From Escherichia phage B9-1, in sequence record OQ420740.1: a DNA stretch of 64,000 nt; one strand, given 5' to 3'. A model generated the notes under the pieces. That model did no database searches. It saw only the letters and a program-made list of their open reading frames with translations, and had not been told where the DNA came from. Positions within the stretch are counted from its first letter, which is position 1. The number at the start of each line of letters is the position of its first letter. The translations under genes and the position numbers were made by a program. Below, in pieces: positions 54,986-64,000 of this stretch.

Positions 54986-55486
54986 GTGAAAATTAAAATC
55001 TTTGCTATTATTTTGAGCGCATTTTTATCGCTGCCTGTTGTTGCAGCACCAAAACAAAAAGTATATCACACTTGCAAGCCGTCGGATACTAAGGAAAACA
55101 TTCTAGCATGCAATATCTACAGGGAGGCTAGAGGGGATGGCACGATGGGTATGCTGGCATCCGGATTTGCCACACTAAACAGGAAATCTCACCCCAAATA
55201 CCCAGACACTATAAGAAAGATTGTCTACCAACCTAACCAGTTTTCGTGGACAAACCACGGCAAAACTTTTAAGGTGACAGAAAAAGATTCATGGGATCAC
55301 GCTAAAAGTCTTGCAAAGATGCTTCTAAAGGTCTATAATAACAACCATGTTGCATACATGGCTATGGATATAACAGGCGGAGCAACACACTACCATACAA
55401 CAAAAGTACGACCGAAATGGGCAAAAAAGATGCAGAGGACAGCTCAATTCGGGAGCCATATCTACTACAAGGAGCGCAATAAATGA
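54986..55486 (+). CDS. secreted cell-wall hydrolase, SleB/Hydrolase_2-like (candidate endolysin)
   Basis: GTG start after GGAG; N-terminal signal-peptide-like segment (MKIKIFAIILSAFLSLPVVAAP); motif CNIYREARGDG...ATLNRKSHPKYP...QPNQFSW matches the SleB-type pattern. Confidence 0.55.
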   Translation: MKIKIFAIILSAFLSLPVVAAPKQKVYHTCKPSDTKENILACNIYREARGDGTMGMLASGFATLNRKSHPKYPDTIRKIVYQPNQFSWTNHGKTFKVTEKDSWDHAKSLAKMLLKVYNNNHVAYMAMDITGGATHYHTTKVRPKWAKKMQRTAQFGSHIYYKERNK

Positions 55487-57465
55487 TTGTAAACAGCAAT
55501 GAAACTAAAGCGGTGCTAACTGGGAATATGGAGGTAACCAGGGGATCAATTTCTCTGAACAAAGAGACTTTTGGGCTAATCATCAAAGGGATTTATGAAG
55601 ATAAGGTACTGGCAAGCTGCCGTGAACCGATCTTCAATGCTGTGGACTCACATGTTGAGTCTGGACGAGGTGATGTACCGATCATCATTCACTCTCCTAC
55701 AGACCTTGAACCATACTTCTTTGTGCAGGACGTTGGATTAGGCATGTCAGAAGAGATGGTCCGTAACACTTTCATGAACCTAGGTGAGTCGACCAAGCGC
55801 AACAGCAACGCTCTGGTAGGCAATAAAGGTGTTGGTTCAAAGGCCCCGTTCAGCATGGTGGACACTTTCGATGTAATCAGTGTGCACAACGGTGTGGAAA
55901 GCACATACCTATTGTTCTTGGACCAGGGTATCCCAAATGTCACCAAGATCCGTGAGCGGAAGACTGAAGAGCACAACGGGGTAAAAGTTCAGTTTCATGT
56001 TAAGAAAGAGCATGTTCTGAAATATCGCACCGCTATTGCATCATGCCTGCGCTATGCAAAATTTCCGTTCACTGTCACCGACCCGATGACGAGCAAGATG
56101 CTGGAGGGAGACAAAGTAGAGGCGCAGTATTATTATGAAAAAGATGGTTGGAAGATGACCATCCTGAAGGGTTATACCAGCTCTGACGAGAGTCGTGTGG
56201 TAATGGGTCACCAACCTTACCGTTCTAAGTTCCTGGAGACACTAATAGATTATCCTGCAATTTGTGTAGAGATCCCTATCGGAGATTGCAATATTAACCC
56301 AGGGCGTGAATGGACCATAGAAGGTCACGACGATGGTGGATTCCAAGAGCGTTTGGAAGCTTTTGTCAAAGAAGGCATTCGCCTTCGTGGAGCAGAAGTT
56401 GTTGCAGAACTGGAGACAGCAAAAACATCCTCAGAAGCACGCGAGATGATGAAGAACAGTGGAGTGTTCGGGCACATCTTCGGTAAGAATTTTATGTATG
56501 ACCGCTGGGAAGAAACAGGGCTAGGAAATTTGGGGGACTGCGAGATCTTCGCTGGCGGCTTAAATAAAGGCCGCATAGGTTACGCCTGCTACGGAAAGGT
56601 AGAATTCTTACGGGGAGTTTATTTAGTATTTAACGACGGAGACGGCAAATATAACCGGAATAAGTGTAACTACTTAAGCGAGATTACCGGACGCAACGTT
56701 TTCTATTGCCGTAACACGGATCTGGTGAAAGAGTTTAAAGAGGCGGCACACCATCCGTTTTTTGCAGATACGGTCAAATTGTTATCGGAGCTTCCACGCC
56801 GACCTACGAAGAAAGGTGAAACCAAAACCCGTTACGAACCAGGCTATTGGGTTAAAAAACTTGAGAAGGATGGTTACTTCCGGCGTGAGCGTATTACTAA
56901 GGCAGAGTTCAGGAAGATTAAGCACTGCATACCGTATGAGGGGGATATCCAACGCGGAAGTTGTTGGCTAGGGCAGATGAGCAACATCTACCAGCAAGAT
57001 TATGACCGTGTGCGTTCGGCACTCCAGATTCCTGAAGGGGAAGATCTGTACCTGGTGTCGGAATCTCGTCTGCTTTGGACTGATCCTGATTGCCAATATG
57101 TTACAGAGAAGAATGTGGAACATTTGTTGAAAGAGGATGCTTGGAAATTCTTACTAACTCGCGCAGCAAATGAAACTTCATATGACAGCCTGTACAGACA
57201 GTTAGGTAAAATTATCCCCATGCAGGATTTTGGAAGTTATCGGCCACATTTCCACAAGTGGGAAGGTAGCACCACGTGGAAGTACGGTGAGCTAAATCAT
57301 CGTGCCAAAATCTTAATCGCCAACCGGGTTAAGTGCGGGAAGGCCTATATTGCAAGATTGGAAAAGAAATATCCACTTTTGAAGCATGTAGGCTTGAAAT
57401 ATTGGGACACTCCTGCTATGATTGAATACCGTGAACTGATTGATACAAAGAATAACATCAAATAA
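55483..57465 (+). CDS. rIIA: rIIA-like protein (GHKL/Bergerat-fold ATPase domain at N-terminus)
   Basis: 660 aa; N-box-like REPIFNAVDSH, G1 box VQDVGLGMS, G2 box GNKGVGSKAPFS in the first 130 aa; immediately followed by an rIIB-like gene. Confidence 0.65.
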   Translation: MIVNSNETKAVLTGNMEVTRGSISLNKETFGLIIKGIYEDKVLASCREPIFNAVDSHVESGRGDVPIIIHSPTDLEPYFFVQDVGLGMSEEMVRNTFMNLGESTKRNSNALVGNKGVGSKAPFSMVDTFDVISVHNGVESTYLLFLDQGIPNVTKIRERKTEEHNGVKVQFHVKKEHVLKYRTAIASCLRYAKFPFTVTDPMTSKMLEGDKVEAQYYYEKDGWKMTILKGYTSSDESRVVMGHQPYRSKFLETLIDYPAICVEIPIGDCNINPGREWTIEGHDDGGFQERLEAFVKEGIRLRGAEVVAELETAKTSSEAREMMKNSGVFGHIFGKNFMYDRWEETGLGNLGDCEIFAGGLNKGRIGYACYGKVEFLRGVYLVFNDGDGKYNRNKCNYLSEITGRNVFYCRNTDLVKEFKEAAHHPFFADTVKLLSELPRRPTKKGETKTRYEPGYWVKKLEKDGYFRRERITKAEFRKIKHCIPYEGDIQRGSCWLGQMSNIYQQDYDRVRSALQIPEGEDLYLVSESRLLWTDPDCQYVTEKNVEHLLKEDAWKFLLTRAANETSYDSLYRQLGKIIPMQDFGSYRPHFHKWEGSTTWKYGELNHRAKILIANRVKCGKAYIARLEKKYPLLKHVGLKYWDTPAMIEYRELIDTKNNIK

Positions 57466-57475
57466 GGAGACCAAG

Positions 57476-58681
57476 ATGATTTTCATCTACGAACATTTCA
57501 AAACTCGTAAAGAAGCACGTGACCGCCGTGCAGAACTTGAGAAGAAGGGTTTCACATGCGCTATTGAGAAAGGTAACACAACCTGGACACTGGCAGTAGG
57601 TGCCCCAGAGTTGTTCGATCCTGACCGTGACAGCGTCTGCTACACCCGTGAGGATTTTGAAACCCGTGAAGAGGCCCGTTTATTTCGATATGGGCTGGAA
57701 GATAACGGTAAGTACGCCATGATCTTAGATTTAGGAGAAGGTTCCGTTAAACGTTGGGGTGTGGTATATCCACTGTGTGTTGTTCACGGTGTAGGGTTCA
57801 CTGGGGTAGCAATCAAGTCAGAAGAACCTTTAGTAGAAGTAAAAGACCCGGTGCTGGAGGTGGTGAGCAGTGTGTCTCAGCAACAGACCCGAAGCATCGA
57901 GCCTTTGGTGGTTATTTGCGGGGAACTCCTCCAGATCACCTGCAACGAAGGTATTTTTGAAATTCGCCGCAGTGAAAGTGAGGAAGTTTACCAGAAAGTC
58001 TTCGACCATATCTCTGTTCAGGAATATGACGAGGCAATTGGTGAAATCCTTGTCTGGCTGGAACGCAAGAATGAGTTCACCACACTTGCAGACAACCTGA
58101 TCATGAAAGATGGTAAGCTCTACTACTACGGTGTAGAGATGCGATCCACCATTGCAAAGAAAATTGAGAAAGATTATGCAGACGGAACACTGGATGACCG
58201 CTATGTGAAATTCCTCGTTCGCCTGCTACGCAATCCTTCTGCAAAATCTGTAAACATGCTCTACGATTTTATGCAGGCAAACGACATTCAGATTGCAGAA
58301 GATGGTCGAATCATTTGCTACAAAGGGGTTCAGTTTAACGGCGACAAGTGGGTGGATTGGCACAGTGGTAAAGTCCCACAATACCAGGGGGCTTTTGTAT
58401 CCATGCCTCGTAACTTTGTAGAGGATGATCCGGAAGCTGCATGCTCTTATGGCCTGCACTGTGCCAGCAAAGAGTATGCAAAGAGCTACGGAACTGTGAT
58501 GACGGTTATGGTTGACCCTGCCGATGTAGTTAGTGTACCTTACCAACACAACAGCGCCAAGTGCCGTGCATGCCGCTACGAAATCGTAGTAGCTCCAGAA
58601 TCGCGCAAAGATGGCGACCCAATTGAGTACGTGGTTGACCGCGACGGTAATACTATCGACATTATCTACGAGGAGGCGTAA
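57476..58681 (+). CDS. rIIB: rIIB-like protein
   Basis: ATG 57476 five nt after AAGGAGA (ORF-track TTG 57440 lies inside rIIA); C-terminal motifs LYDFMQANDIQIAEDG, ACSYGLHCASKEY and AKCRACRYEIVV parallel conserved T4 rIIB motifs as recalled. Confidence 0.6.
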   Translation: MIFIYEHFKTRKEARDRRAELEKKGFTCAIEKGNTTWTLAVGAPELFDPDRDSVCYTREDFETREEARLFRYGLEDNGKYAMILDLGEGSVKRWGVVYPLCVVHGVGFTGVAIKSEEPLVEVKDPVLEVVSSVSQQQTRSIEPLVVICGELLQITCNEGIFEIRRSESEEVYQKVFDHISVQEYDEAIGEILVWLERKNEFTTLADNLIMKDGKLYYYGVEMRSTIAKKIEKDYADGTLDDRYVKFLVRLLRNPSAKSVNMLYDFMQANDIQIAEDGRIICYKGVQFNGDKWVDWHSGKVPQYQGAFVSMPRNFVEDDPEAACSYGLHCASKEYAKSYGTVMTVMVDPADVVSVPYQHNSAKCRACRYEIVVAPESRKDGDPIEYVVDRDGNTIDIIYEEA

Positions 58682-60051: not shown

Positions 60052-60389
60052 GTTTGTGGAGAAATATCGTTAACTACGTGTGTGGCAATCCGACTCCTGA
60101 AGAGAAGGATGTTGTGATTCACGATTTTACTAAAAGATCTCGTGAAAAAGATCTACTGCTAACAAAGGTGACTGATAAAGATCCTGCAGTAGGGGACTGG
60201 GCAGGTTTTGCGTTTACATCGGACAAATACACCTTTAACAAAGGTGACTACCTTGTTGTGGATTTTAACGAAGATATTGAGGGTGCTGAACCTTACTATC
60301 AAACCCTTATTGTTGCAGGGTGTGTTGATCTCTCTGCAGGCATGCACAGTTTGATTCTTTTTGAGCTTGACTCTGAAGACCTTGAGTAG
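60048..60389 (+). CDS. hypothetical protein
   Basis: 113-aa ORF overlapping helicase stop (ATGA). Confidence 0.5.
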   Translation: MSLWRNIVNYVCGNPTPEEKDVVIHDFTKRSREKDLLLTKVTDKDPAVGDWAGFAFTSDKYTFNKGDYLVVDFNEDIEGAEPYYQTLIVAGCVDLSAGMHSLILFELDSEDLE

Positions 60390-60406
60390 TAAGATGTGAG
60401 TATAAA

Positions 60407-60424
60407 GGGGAGGCACTCCTCCCC
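60407..60424. other. GC-rich hairpin without downstream T-tract
   Basis: GGGGAGG-CACT-CCTCCCC; followed by ACAAAAAC on plus strand; a T-run lies on the minus-strand side. Confidence 0.3.
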
Positions 60425-60450
60425 ACAAAAACTAAGGAGAGCACCAAACG

Positions 60451-61794
60451 ATGAGTAAAACCAAATTAGAACTTACCTGGATAGGTAAGAACGAGCGCAA
60501 AAAGCTAGAGCCTCACATTTTGCGAGAAGATTCGAGCAAGTCTTATCACGCCAGTAAAAAGGTGACCGAAAACGATATTTTTGATAATAAACTGATTTTT
60601 GGAGATAACTTACTGGCATTGAAGGCACTAGAGCAAGAGTATGCAGGCAAAGTGAAGTGTGTTTACATAGACCCGCCATTTAATACCGGAAGGGATTTTG
60701 AGCACTACGATGATAGCCTGGAGCACTCCATTTGGCTGGGCTTAATGCGGGACAGATTAGAAATAATTCGTAATCTGCTAAGCGATGATGGAGTGATATT
60801 CGTTCACTTAGATGACTGCGAAATGGCTTATTTAAAAGTCTTGATGGACGAGATTTTTGGTCGTGCAAATCAGTTAAATACCATATCGATGACTACAAAT
60901 TGCCCTTCAGGCTTTAAGGCAACAGGAACTACAGTTTTCTCCACAGCAAACTTTTTGCTTGTATATGCAAAAGATCGTACCAAGAAACCACTTAACAAAA
61001 TCTATATACCTAAAGAGTATGATACGGGATATAACAAATATCTATTAAACCCAGATGACCATTATAAAAGTTGGACGTGGTGCGGTATTGCCGATGCGTT
61101 TGCAAAGGCCAATGGCTATAAAGATACAAAAGAAGCCAAGAAAAAACTGCCTGATACATTTGATGATGAATTAGCACAATTTGCAATTGATAATGCAGAA
61201 CGTGTATTTCAATCCGTTGCAATTGGCGGTGGTGCCAAAATAAAGAGAAAAGAAACTATCGAGAAGTCAAAGAAAGATAGGGATAAGGTTTATGTACATC
61301 CAAATGAGGATGTCGAAGGCTTTTATATCGCAAATGGTAGGCAAATGGTCTTTTATTCCAATAGGCTTTTGGAAATTGACGGTGAGATGCAGCCTGCTGA
61401 ACTAATAACTGATGTTTGGACTGACATTAGTTGGAATGGAATAGCAAATGAAGGGGGCGTTAGTTTCAAAAATGGAAAAAAACCTGAAGCGCTTTTGAAG
61501 CGGATTTTAAAAATGTGTACGCGAGAAGGAGATTTAGTATTGGATTCATTCGGCGGTTCGGGGACTACTGCTGCTGTAGCTCACAAGATGAAAAGACGTT
61601 GGATCTCTGTTGAGCTAGGAGATCATTGTCATACCCATATTATTCCACGCTTGCAAAAAGTGATCGATGGTGAAGATCAAAGTGGTATTTCTAAATCTGT
61701 AAACTGGCAAGGTGGTGGGGGCTTTCGTTATTACAAACTTGCCCAGAACTTAGTTGTGAAAGATAAGCTTGACTCAGAAGAAGATTTAGAGTAA
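60451..61794 (+). CDS. DNA N6-adenine (or N4-cytosine) methyltransferase, beta-class amino-MTase
   Basis: 447 aa; motif IV VYIDPPFNTG (DPPF) precedes AdoMet-binding motif I LDSFGGSGTTA; no adjacent restriction gene seen, so likely orphan. Confidence 0.7.
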   Translation: MSKTKLELTWIGKNERKKLEPHILREDSSKSYHASKKVTENDIFDNKLIFGDNLLALKALEQEYAGKVKCVYIDPPFNTGRDFEHYDDSLEHSIWLGLMRDRLEIIRNLLSDDGVIFVHLDDCEMAYLKVLMDEIFGRANQLNTISMTTNCPSGFKATGTTVFSTANFLLVYAKDRTKKPLNKIYIPKEYDTGYNKYLLNPDDHYKSWTWCGIADAFAKANGYKDTKEAKKKLPDTFDDELAQFAIDNAERVFQSVAIGGGAKIKRKETIEKSKKDRDKVYVHPNEDVEGFYIANGRQMVFYSNRLLEIDGEMQPAELITDVWTDISWNGIANEGGVSFKNGKKPEALLKRILKMCTREGDLVLDSFGGSGTTAAVAHKMKRRWISVELGDHCHTHIIPRLQKVIDGEDQSGISKSVNWQGGGGFRYYKLAQNLVVKDKLDSEEDLE

Positions 61795-61850
61795 TATTTA
61801 AAATATCGAAGGAGAGGTCTACTCTTAACACAAGATAAGGAGAACACCGA

Positions 61851-62156
61851 ATGATGAAGCGTTATAAACCATATACTTTTGAAATCGATTTCGAACTTGA
61901 CAATATGCTCACTGTAGAGGCTCAGGCAGTTGTCCAGTTGCCAGATCCAGAGTGCCGTGATTCTGATGTTGATTATTATGGATTTAGACAGATTACTGAT
62001 GTGCATGTTTACCACAACGGAGAAGAGGTGGATTTTCACCAACTGCCGAACGATATGCGCCACTCGATTTACAAACGGGCAGCACGTGAACTAGAGTCCT
62101 ATCTGGATGCAGCAACAACAGCGGCTGCATTTGCTGAAGAGACAGGAGGTTTCTGA
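61851..62156 (+). CDS. hypothetical protein
   Basis: 101-aa ORF with RBS AAGGAGA. Confidence 0.5.
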   Translation: MMKRYKPYTFEIDFELDNMLTVEAQAVVQLPDPECRDSDVDYYGFRQITDVHVYHNGEEVDFHQLPNDMRHSIYKRAARELESYLDAATTAAAFAEETGGF

Positions 62157-62551
62157 TGATTACAGATGTGAAGATTATCCAATACCACCTAACCAAATTA
62201 GAAGATGCTGAAAAAGAGCTTTCAGAAGTTCTGAACAGTGGGTATACTTTACTGACATGCTCCTGTTCAGACACATACATTGTGTGGACACTTGCTAAGA
62301 AGGAAGAACCAGCAGGAATCTTGGTGCCAAACCCTAAGATTATTAGTGAGGTGGACGACTACTCTCAGGATGGCCTACCAGAAGGCTGGGAAACATGGGA
62401 AGGTGGTGAAAACCCTGCACCAGGTAAGTGGGTAAAATACAAACTACGTAGCGGTGCACAGTATGCTGACTACTCTGATGACCTAGACTGGAGTCACTCT
62501 TCACCAGGATCATCTGCAAGTGCATATGATATTGTTGCTTTTCAGGAATAA
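62156..62551 (+). CDS. hypothetical protein
   Basis: 131-aa ORF, start overlaps upstream stop. Confidence 0.5.
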   Translation: MITDVKIIQYHLTKLEDAEKELSEVLNSGYTLLTCSCSDTYIVWTLAKKEEPAGILVPNPKIISEVDDYSQDGLPEGWETWEGGENPAPGKWVKYKLRSGAQYADYSDDLDWSHSSPGSSASAYDIVAFQE

Positions 62552-62563
62552 GGAGAGAGTGTT

Positions 62564-63046
62564 ATGTCAGATTTTATGTGGAAGGTAGGCTACGCTGCTC
62601 CCGAGATGTGCAAGGCCTGCTTTGTGAAAATAGGCCGCGAGGATATCGACAAAGTTATCTTTAAGTTTCGTGATGTGGCTGTAATCGGCAACCGAGTGCT
62701 TAAGCACTTAAAAAATCTGAAACTCACCAAAAAGAAATTCTTCGGGCTTTTTGAAGAGAAAGTTGATGCTTGGACCCATTGCATTCAGGAAGCTAAATCT
62801 CACTACAGTGCTATTGTTACTCCAGAACGGGTAGCCAAGATGGAAGGATTCATCAACAGCACGGAGTTTGAGTGCTTAAAAGCTGCCCTTGATAGTTATC
62901 CAAAGTGCCTCAAACATCTCGACAAGTATGTAGAAGAGGATGGGGAAATGTATCTCACTCTGGATGCATACTATGAGATGCAAGAAATTTTAAATTTAGA
63001 TTTGACATTGGTATCCACCGAGTATACAATAGGTATCCGGGTTTAA
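62564..63046 (+). CDS. hypothetical protein
   Basis: 160-aa ORF with RBS AAGGAGAGAG; followed by terminator. Confidence 0.5.
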   Translation: MSDFMWKVGYAAPEMCKACFVKIGREDIDKVIFKFRDVAVIGNRVLKHLKNLKLTKKKFFGLFEEKVDAWTHCIQEAKSHYSAIVTPERVAKMEGFINSTEFECLKAALDSYPKCLKHLDKYVEEDGEMYLTLDAYYEMQEILNLDLTLVSTEYTIGIRV

Positions 63047-63051
63047 CACTA

Positions 63052-63080
63052 GGCCCTGCCCGAAAGGGTGGGGCTTTTTG
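63052..63080 (+). terminator. rho-independent terminator
   Basis: Stem CCCTGCCC / GGGTGGGG (two G-T wobbles), loop GAAA, then CTTTTTGC. Confidence 0.6.
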
Positions 63081-63097
63081 CATTAGGAGACAGCAAA

Positions 63098-63862
63098 TTG
63101 AAATTTATCTACAAAGAACACTACCACAAAGGTGTTGTGTGGAGTCTATTTGACGGGTCTGGTGGTGCAGTTATTGACTGGGCAAAAGCTGGATATCTGT
63201 GCCTGTGCTTTAACGCAGAAGGTGCTGACCATGGCAGTTATGCAGAGGTGATAACCGATCATCCCAACATTCACTACGTGGATTATTGGATTGACCCGTG
63301 GTTCCCTCAAGAAACTTTTTGCATGTACCCAGCTCCAGACTTTATTCTTGCATTTCCTCCGTGCACGCATTTAGCAGTATCAGGTGCTGCACATTTTAAG
63401 AAAAAGCTGGCTAAGGACCCTCTGATTCAAATTAATGCTGTAAAAGATGCTCGGGTTGCAGAAGAGTTGGGAGAGATTTACGATTGCCCGTGGCATGTAG
63501 AGAATCCTGTGGGAGTTATGTCCACACTGTGGCGAAAACCTGATTACCGTTTTCATCCTTCAGATTATGGCGGGTATTTACCGGAGGATGATGTAAACCC
63601 CTGGTTTCCTGAATTTATAGCTCCACGGGATGCCTACCCAAAAATAACTTGCGGTTGGATAGGCAATGGATTTATAATCCCCGCCACAAAACCTGTCCCG
63701 CAAATAGTTGATGTGGTTAGTGGTTATTCCATGCAACACGCTAAGCTAGGTGGAAAGAGTGCAAGGACGAAGATGATTCGAAGCCTTACACCACGTGGCT
63801 GGGCAAGAGCTGTATTCTTAGCAAACGAGCCTGCAGTAAGGAGAAGAATTAATGGGCAGTAA
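63098..63862 (+). CDS. divergent DNA cytosine-5 methyltransferase-like protein
   Basis: In-frame TTG at 63098 seven nt after AGGAGA (ORF-track start 63068 lies in terminator stem); motif I-like LFDGSGG, catalytic-like FPPCTHLAVSG (Pro-Cys), ENV-like HVENPVGV. Confidence 0.4.
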   Translation: MKFIYKEHYHKGVVWSLFDGSGGAVIDWAKAGYLCLCFNAEGADHGSYAEVITDHPNIHYVDYWIDPWFPQETFCMYPAPDFILAFPPCTHLAVSGAAHFKKKLAKDPLIQINAVKDARVAEELGEIYDCPWHVENPVGVMSTLWRKPDYRFHPSDYGGYLPEDDVNPWFPEFIAPRDAYPKITCGWIGNGFIIPATKPVPQIVDVVSGYSMQHAKLGGKSARTKMIRSLTPRGWARAVFLANEPAVRRRINGQ

Positions 63863-64000
63863 ATTCATGGCATCTGCATACAACCGTTTCGGTGAGCCAA
63901 ACCCGAAAGCAACTAAGTATAAAAGTGGGGGAAGTGTGAAACGAGACTATCGTGATGAAAAAGAAGTTGAAACTGTAGAGACTGTTTTAGAAAATACTAA
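63851..64000 (+). CDS. 3-prime-truncated hypothetical CDS
   Basis: ATG 63851 after AGGAGAAG, overlapping upstream stop; frame open to window end. Confidence 0.4.

Follow-up and report, generated by a model that had tools for sequence, protein, structure and literature searches.

What do two DNA methyltransferase-like genes, one of them with an unusual catalytic motif, contribute to Escherichia phage B9-1? The question was raised by a 64,000-nucleotide (nt) stretch of this phage (sequence record OQ420740.1; hereafter the window). The original prediction, made from the sequence letters, had described there a beta-class amino-methyltransferase gene with no restriction partner (open reading frame A, ORF A) and a second gene with C5-methyltransferase-like motifs (ORF B), and had read the pair as genome self-modification serving anti-restriction. 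We infer that ORF A and ORF B each encode an orphan DNA methyltransferase acting on the DNA of the phage itself as it replicates, and assign this reading a probability of roughly 78%; the two proteins are presumed to be catalytically active, and what is said below of their target sites and of protection against restriction is likewise presumptive. The elements on which the argument turns are these:

60451..61794, plus strand: ORF A, 447 amino acids (aa), an orphan, C-terminally truncated type III Mod-like beta-class amino-methyltransferase

60451..61780, plus strand: stretch with 94% nucleotide identity to a type III mod gene on the E. coli chromosome, over the first 1321-1330 nt of that gene (megablast)

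63098..63862, plus strand: ORF B, 254 aa from a TTG start, a compact Dcm-like C5-cytosine methyltransferase gene whose 3' end extends into the beginning of the primase/helicase gene

The class originally proposed for ORF A was borne out. Its DPPF motif (motif IV; aa 74-77, nt 60670-60681) lies N-terminal to FGGSGTT (motif I; aa 367-373, nt 61549-61569), and the protein matched PF01555 (N6_N4_Mtase) with an E value of 9.8e-44 and 150.4 bits, the curated cut-off being 26.7. The match spans 327 residues for 216 profile positions, indicative of a large insert, and the recognition region is situated between motifs IV and I. The closest relatives of solved structure were type III Mods, namely those of Helicobacter pylori (E 2.3e-29) and EcoP15I (E 6.5e-23), with the EcoP15I structure 4zcf among the PDB matches. 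The motif DPPF and the homology to type III Mods lead us to favour the N6 of adenine over the N4 of cytosine as the probable target. The absence of a partner restriction gene was likewise upheld, as there is no res gene in the window and no Res-like gene in the annotated genome of the related phage Bas51. Nor does a restriction-enzyme gene adjoin ORF A or ORF B, whose neighbours are a Dda/RecD-like helicase gene, ORFs of 101-160 aa and the primase/helicase gene.

The most informative fact about ORF A had been overlooked, namely that the gene copies a type III mod gene of the host almost identically, but in truncated form. In a megablast search the ORF A DNA matched 25 of 5426 complete E. coli genomes, in every case on the chromosome, and in 24 of these the match covered at least 80% of the query. 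These 24 matches had approximately 94% nucleotide identity from nt 1 to nt 1321-1330 of the 1344 nt of ORF A, and began exactly at the start codon. The DNA that follows (61795-63900) had no match in E. coli genomes, even by sensitive blastn. At the protein level, ORF A aligned over its whole length and without gaps to the 567-aa E. coli Mod P0271 (WP_213054361), with 420 of 443 residues identical (95%). PADLOC assigned ORF A to MTase_III (PDLC03636, E 6.2e-203) over only positions 2-445 of the 575 in the profile, whereas the E. coli protein covers positions 1-572, and with 447 aa versus 567-600 aa in bacterial Mods the phage protein does not have the full-length Mod architecture. By these alignments, ORF A is a 3'-truncated type III Mod subunit gene that has kept its first ~440 codons and lost the last ~125 residues.

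The E. coli mod gene is followed by a gene for a 912-aa ResIII helicase-nuclease (PADLOC REase_III, E 9e-191), and Mod stands beside Res in 24-25 of the 5426 complete genomes. An Acinetobacter homologue with 72% identity to ORF A lies in the same core of SNF2, Mod, and Res genes. Since the homologue adjoins a ResIII/REase_III gene in both E. coli and Acinetobacter, the bacterial gene is the Mod of a type III system. A search of approximately 5.8 billion proteins returned thousands of bacterial homologues of ORF A, of which 8000 were scored at E<=1e-10; the best 120 listed of these 8000 came from several phyla, were mostly 560-600 aa long, and had 58-77% identity. Hundreds of bacterial homologues of 570-600 aa, at 58-77% identity, argue that mod was transferred from bacterium to phage.

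The E. coli mod island also holds genes for an AlpA-type regulator, a mad1-like helix-turn-helix protein, a DrmD-like SNF2 helicase, AbiD, and AbiU. As a separate observation, the host Mod/Res pair follows the DrmD-like helicase and mad1-like genes in a conserved arrangement in E. coli (NZ_CP126944.1, 906987-926307) and Acinetobacter, with inserts in between that vary: in E. coli they are AbiD and AbiU, in Acinetobacter DUF4276 and an AAA_21 ATPase. Such a layout may reflect a larger system or else a composite defence island. The label 'mads1' given to the E. coli neighbour gene by the Prokaryotic Genome Annotation Pipeline (PGAP) had suggested a MADS system, but this assignment was rejected, as PADLOC calls the pair type III Mod and Res. 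The published MADS methylase mad2, with the site TCAGN4TCC, is a different enzyme from the E. coli Mod.

How the gene came to its present position could be followed in related phages. The window derives from an rV5-like coliphage of the genus Vequintavirus, and its 4-kb region is 98% identical in nucleotide sequence to phages ECP2303 and S127 BCL3 and 92-97% identical to about 115 other rV5-like Vequintavirus phages. Approximately 31 of 116 Vequintavirus records, about a quarter, lack exactly ORF A, which thus behaves as a presence/absence cassette. Two related junction sequences flank it:

60358..60450, plus strand: junction upstream of ORF A, with the 3' end of a 113-aa ORF (tail ...LDSEDLE-stop), a promoter-like sequence (60367-60395), a hairpin (60407-60424), and the ribosome-binding site (RBS) AAGGAG (60434-60439)

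61760..61850, plus strand: diverged duplicate of the upstream junction, which gives ORF A its final codons (LDSEEDLE-stop) and stop codon, and the following ORF its RBS

The two are a diverged direct duplicate of an ORF-end, hairpin, and RBS junction, with the LDSEEDLE end of ORF A copying the LDSEDLE tail of the 113-aa ORF, and they mark how the cassette was inserted. In Bas59 (EduardKellenberger), which like LL12 lacks ORF A, the upstream hairpin and RBS junction leads straight into the 101-aa ORF that is next in the window. Bas51-type phages have a different 3' junction, at which the E. coli mod homology extends ~25 nt further and a 12-nt deletion makes the stop codon. The GC content of ORF A, 39.2%, is the lowest of the neighbourhood, that of the window being 44.5%.

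ORF A is under strong purifying selection. The ratio of nonsynonymous to synonymous substitution rates (dN/dS) was 0.04-0.09, both among phage copies and between phage and host, over the whole retained length. The synonymous divergence (dS) between the host mod and each of two phage variants was 0.18-0.24, versus 0.30 between the two phage variants themselves. The host gene is therefore nearer to each variant than the variants are to each other, which leaves repeated exchange possible.

What would such an enzyme do for the phage? The recognition regions of ORF A and the host Mod share ~95% identity, and the simplest assumption is thus that the same site is methylated. ORF A would then most likely modify the site of the host type III system to which P0271 Mod belongs, and could pre-protect phage DNA in the ~0.5% of E. 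coli strains that carry this system.

Methylation in the genus can be seen in Bas51 (phage WalterGehring), in which the ORF A orthologue is 96% and the ORF B orthologue 98% identical to its counterpart in the window. Native nanopore source data for the wild-type phage (PMC12548924), in which N6-methyladenine (m6A) calls are grouped only as GATC, GTAC, and 'other', list 1405 calls at GATC, 509 at GTAC, and 576 others; the corresponding calls for a T83P mutant were 35, 511, and 349. We counted 703 GATC and 258 GTAC sites in the Bas51 genome, such that 1405 of 1406 GATC adenines and 509 of 516 GTAC adenines carry m6A. Both sites are essentially fully methylated on both strands.

We considered whether the retron-triggering 'N6 adenine methyltransferase' of Bas51, which makes the GATC mark, might be the ORF A orthologue, and rejected this, as the residues D69, D79, and T83 fit only bas51_0176. 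The latter gene, outside the window (Bas51 segment L006, 39092-39625, minus strand), encodes a 177-aa TNPPY enzyme, which makes GATC m6A and triggers the retrons Asa1 and Squ1. A further gene, bas51_0200 (segment L008, 5070-5888, minus strand), likewise outside the window, encodes a 272-aa gamma-class enzyme (EPSAGRG...NPPF) with no Pfam match. Vequintaviruses have two further adenine methyltransferase genes, giving four methyltransferase genes per genome.

The GTAC mark raises the best-surviving alternative for ORF A, that it makes GTm6AC on essentially all Bas51 GTAC sites and, in methylating a palindrome, behaves like a type II enzyme and not like a classical type III Mod. GTAC methylation was unchanged when the GATC enzyme was inactivated (509 versus 511 calls over 258 sites), the ORF A orthologue is one of only two adenine methyltransferases then left as candidates in Bas51, and K-12 is not known to have a GTAC methylase. 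An attempt to assign GTAC to ORF A by elimination nevertheless failed on the third candidate, bas51_0200, for which the context of the bacterial homologues is only suggestive. The type III Mods known so far act on asymmetric sites, in which they methylate a single strand, and bas51_0200 is a small gamma-class enzyme whose bacterial homologues adjoin small unannotated ORFs, as in type II pairs; for both of these reasons, we regard ORF A as an unlikely, though by no means negligible, source of the GTAC mark. An asymmetric ORF A motif could also hide among the 349 'other' m6A calls. Separately, GTAC is under-represented both in the window (123 observed versus 208 expected) and in Bas51 (258 versus 441), despite its essentially full methylation in Bas51, and CTAG and CCWGG are likewise depleted.

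A less probable alternative is that ORF A acts mainly as a decoy, the truncated Mod forming mixed dimers with the host Mod or titrating Res and so poisoning the type III complex. Type III enzymes act as Mod2Res complexes, the C-terminal ~125 residues of bacterial Mods are gone from ORF A, and no m6A motif is assigned to ORF A from the Bas51 data, all of which would suit such a role. On the other hand, ORF A keeps its catalytic motifs DPPF and FGGSGTT intact, without variation among the three aligned phage copies, purifying selection extends along the entire retained length, and beyond motif I the fold matches in length that of small active beta-class enzymes, for example M.MboIIA. Methylation is also the simpler route to protection, and we consider the decoy improbable beside an active, site-specific ORF A methylase.

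Turning to ORF B, the start codon had to be settled first. The program-listed GTG start at 63068 sits within a terminator-like hairpin (63051-63076, followed by a T-run), whereas AGGAG (63085-63089) stands ahead of the TTG at 63098, and related records annotate that start (765 nt). For these reasons TTG 63098, as used in the original prediction, is likely to be the start.

The motifs reported for ORF B, LFDGSGG, AFPPCTHLAVSG, and VENPVG, are present, and the description of FPPC-THL in place of PCQ was literally correct. Motif I (FDGSGG) is encoded at nt 63149-63166, motif IV (PPCT, with Cys89) at 63356-63367, motif VI (ENP, with Glu135) at 63500-63508, and motif IX (RSLTPR) at 63779-63796. The profile searches that had been proposed gave PF01555 for ORF A; ORF B itself had neither a Pfam match (E<=0.1) nor an NCBIfam match, and matched phrog_757 instead (E 6e-87). 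Among 38 relatives with 50-97% identity, 21 matched PF00145 at E<10, over motifs I-IV only, the best with 28.5 bits versus a cut-off of 22. The family profile found nothing among PDB sequences, and hhalign of the family with E. coli Dcm aligned only motif IV, without significance. ORF B has the fold of C5-methyltransferases as judged from its predicted structure, for which DNMT3A and DNMT3B were the best structural matches. The recognition region is very small, the QxRxR of motif VIII is absent, with PK(I/K)T at the expected place, and the protein ends ~20 residues past motif IX with no separate motif X (GN[AS]V).

The family to which ORF B belongs is large, comprising 4176 clusters at 90% identity and 2017 representatives at 50% identity, with homologues in 1505 phage records. 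It ranges over Drexlerviridae, Dhillonvirus, Webervirus, Vequintavirinae, and others, and almost all members are 210-260 aa long (~230). In an alignment of 80 diverse members, Cys89 and Glu135 were invariant and Phe86, Pro87, Thr90, Asn136, Pro137, Lys182, and Thr184 were conserved in at least 90%. PPCT is thus the normal motif IV of this family and not an anomaly. ORF B is also under strong purifying selection, with dN/dS of 0.01-0.04 among Vequintavirus copies.

A characterised relative indicates what this motif can do. The 711-bp dcm gene of phage K42, whose genome is 95% identical to that of KarlJaspers (Bas06), was found to be the trigger of retron Ec86, and its expression raised 5-methylcytosine (5mC) in multicopy single-stranded DNA (msDNA) as measured by liquid chromatography-mass spectrometry, while a C82A/E128A/K175A/K176A mutant did not (10.1101/2023.08.16.553469). 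ORF B shares 54% identity (E 9e-87) with the KarlJaspers protein bas06_0055, and C82, E128, K175, and K176 of the K42 enzyme align with Cys89, Glu135, Lys182, and Ile183 of ORF B. By analogy, ORF B would most likely make 5-methylcytosine at a short site, with the Cys of PPCT and the Glu of ENP as catalytic residues.

The change from PCQ to PCT had been read as possibly meaning altered chemistry or an inactive paralogue. Inactivity or a different chemistry, such as carboxymethyl transfer from carboxy-S-adenosylmethionine (Cx-SAM) as in CmoX, is very improbable and unsupported, because PPCT is the family consensus (at least 90% of 80 members), 5mC in vivo is raised by a PPCT enzyme with 54% identity but not by its catalytic mutant, the dN/dS of 0.01-0.04 excludes decay, DNMT3A and DNMT3B also lack PCQ and have PCN, and ORF B has FPPC rather than SPPC, with no CmoA or CmoY (ligase) partner annotated in the Bas51 genome. 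CmoX enzymes have an SPPC motif, an Arg in place of the motif X Asn, and usually a phage CmoA or CmoY (PMC12783734). Judged on SPPC and on the partners, the diagnostic Arg being a position that could not be mapped in ORF B, a CmoX-type carboxymethyltransferase is unlikely. Our literature searches found no 5mC methylome or restriction-digest data for a Vequintavirus, and the rV5 genome paper makes no mention of methylation.

Several points weigh against self-modification by ORF A and ORF B. PF01555 also takes in N4-cytosine enzymes, the missing C-terminus of Mod could matter for dimerisation or activity, and of the two marks in Bas51 the GATC mark belongs to bas51_0176, while the GTAC mark could come from either the ORF A orthologue or bas51_0200. 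For ORF B, the site CCWGG was assumed for K42 Dcm from E. coli Dcm and not mapped (10.1101/2023.08.16.553469). In the BASEL study the Vequintavirinae were exceptionally susceptible to the type II and type III systems tested, which are unrelated ones, with no sign of effective evasion. Because of this sensitivity, any protection would be limited to the systems whose sites ORF A and ORF B cover; for ORF A, the covered system is present in ~0.5% of sequenced E. coli. What survives of the anti-restriction proposal is that self-modification occurs in the genus, as m6A on GATC and GTAC in Bas51, and that it would be site-specific; it does not hold as general anti-restriction. Carrying such enzymes also has a cost, since related phage methyltransferases trigger retrons.

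A wider picture is possible, although we hold it tentatively and would not call it probable. Exchange of mod between E. coli and rV5-like phages would be ongoing and possibly repeated, the truncated Mod would disarm that one host system by pre-methylation or by poisoning of Mod2Res. Separately, the ORF B family, DNMT3-like in fold and devoid of a separate motif X, would perhaps be the most compact C5-methyltransferase architecture in nature.

Compared with known systems, ORF A shares with type III Mods (EcoP15I, EcoP1I, H. pylori; E. coli P0271; PDLC03636) the beta-class motif order and a central target-recognition region, but unlike them it has no res gene, is without the last ~125 residues, and resides in a phage replication-module cassette. 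In work by Hill and colleagues from 1991, the lactococcal phage phi50 reportedly acquired a functional LlaI methylase domain from plasmid pTR2030. Like phi50 in that account, ORF A is a partial copy of a host restriction-modification methylase at high nucleotide identity in a virulent phage, and would offer a route to escape from that particular system; phi50 differs in its host and in having a type IIA rather than a type III Mod source, and the protection by ORF A is putative.

ORF B and the Dcm of K42 and KarlJaspers (Bas06) belong to the same family and length class, with the PPCT Cys, the ENP Glu, the PK-T residues, and a DNMT3A-like predicted fold in common; ORF B comes from Vequintavirinae rather than Drexlerviridae, and has Ile for K176. 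With M.HhaI, E. coli Dcm, and DNMT3A/B (PF00145) it has in common a Rossmann-type fold, FxGxG, the motif IV Pro-Cys, Glu-Asn-x, and R-x-L-T-P-R. In contrast to these enzymes, ORF B is ~100 residues shorter, with a tiny recognition region, PCT for PCQ, and ENP for ENV, and unlike canonical C5 enzymes it is without QxRxR and a separate motif X and lies itself below Pfam detection.

As counter-defence, orphan methyltransferases of phages are textbook material, and public records already list both genes as methyltransferases; the basic finding is accordingly an ordinary one. The host capture of ORF A is an incremental addition of modest interest. It does provide a clean, datable case of a virulent phage with a truncated copy of the methylase of a specific host restriction system, and because phages with and without ORF A occur naturally and host strains, APEC E16002 and SMN152SH1 among them, are identified, the protection hypothesis can be tested directly. 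With ORF B, the PCT form of the C5 catalytic box proves to be a functional hallmark of its family. Because they trigger retrons, members of that family, like the small Dam-like enzyme found in these phages, are also a liability, which bears on the choice of therapeutic rV5-like phages.

The genes around ORF A and ORF B, all on the plus strand, are in order rIIA, rIIB, a Dda/RecD-like helicase gene, the 113-aa ORF, ORF A, three small ORFs, ORF B, a primase/helicase gene, and a DNA polymerase gene. On the basis of this order, in which a helicase gene precedes and the primase/helicase and DNA polymerase genes follow, ORF A and ORF B can be placed within the replication module, the phage being a virulent myovirus. 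The remaining features are as follows:

61851..63046, plus strand: three small conserved ORFs (61851-62156, 62156-62551, and 62564-63046) between the two methyltransferase genes

63002..63089, plus strand: elements upstream of ORF B, consisting of a promoter-like TTGACA-17-TACAAT (63002-63030), a terminator-like hairpin with T-run (63051-63081), and the RBS AGGAG (63085-63089), all consensus matches only

The three small ORFs had no Pfam matches and matched only PHROGs of unknown function (phrog_4240, 11995, and 12900); they are kept in phages both with and without ORF A. The first, of 101 aa (61851-62156), also matched, though weakly, small PHROG families that bear the label 'DNA methyltransferase' (E 3e-6 and 4e-3). 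That it is a leftover of the Mod C-terminus was rejected, as it has no similarity to the missing part and is also present in phages that lack ORF A. Sixteen GenBank records (MG0656xx) named 'Campylobacter phage', with C. jejuni as host, are 92-93% identical to rV5-like coliphages over the region considered here, and the host label looks doubtful.

Just upstream, at 55483-58681, the rIIA-like protein has a GHKL ATPase domain match and the rIIB-like ORF a weak N-terminal match to a SPOR domain. Ahead of ORF B, the promoter-like site in 63002-63089 is near consensus (11/12 matches). Within ~20 nt of it comes the strong terminator-like hairpin with its T-run, and after these the ORF B RBS. The operon upstream may simply end at this terminator, or the arrangement could serve as a leader or attenuator.

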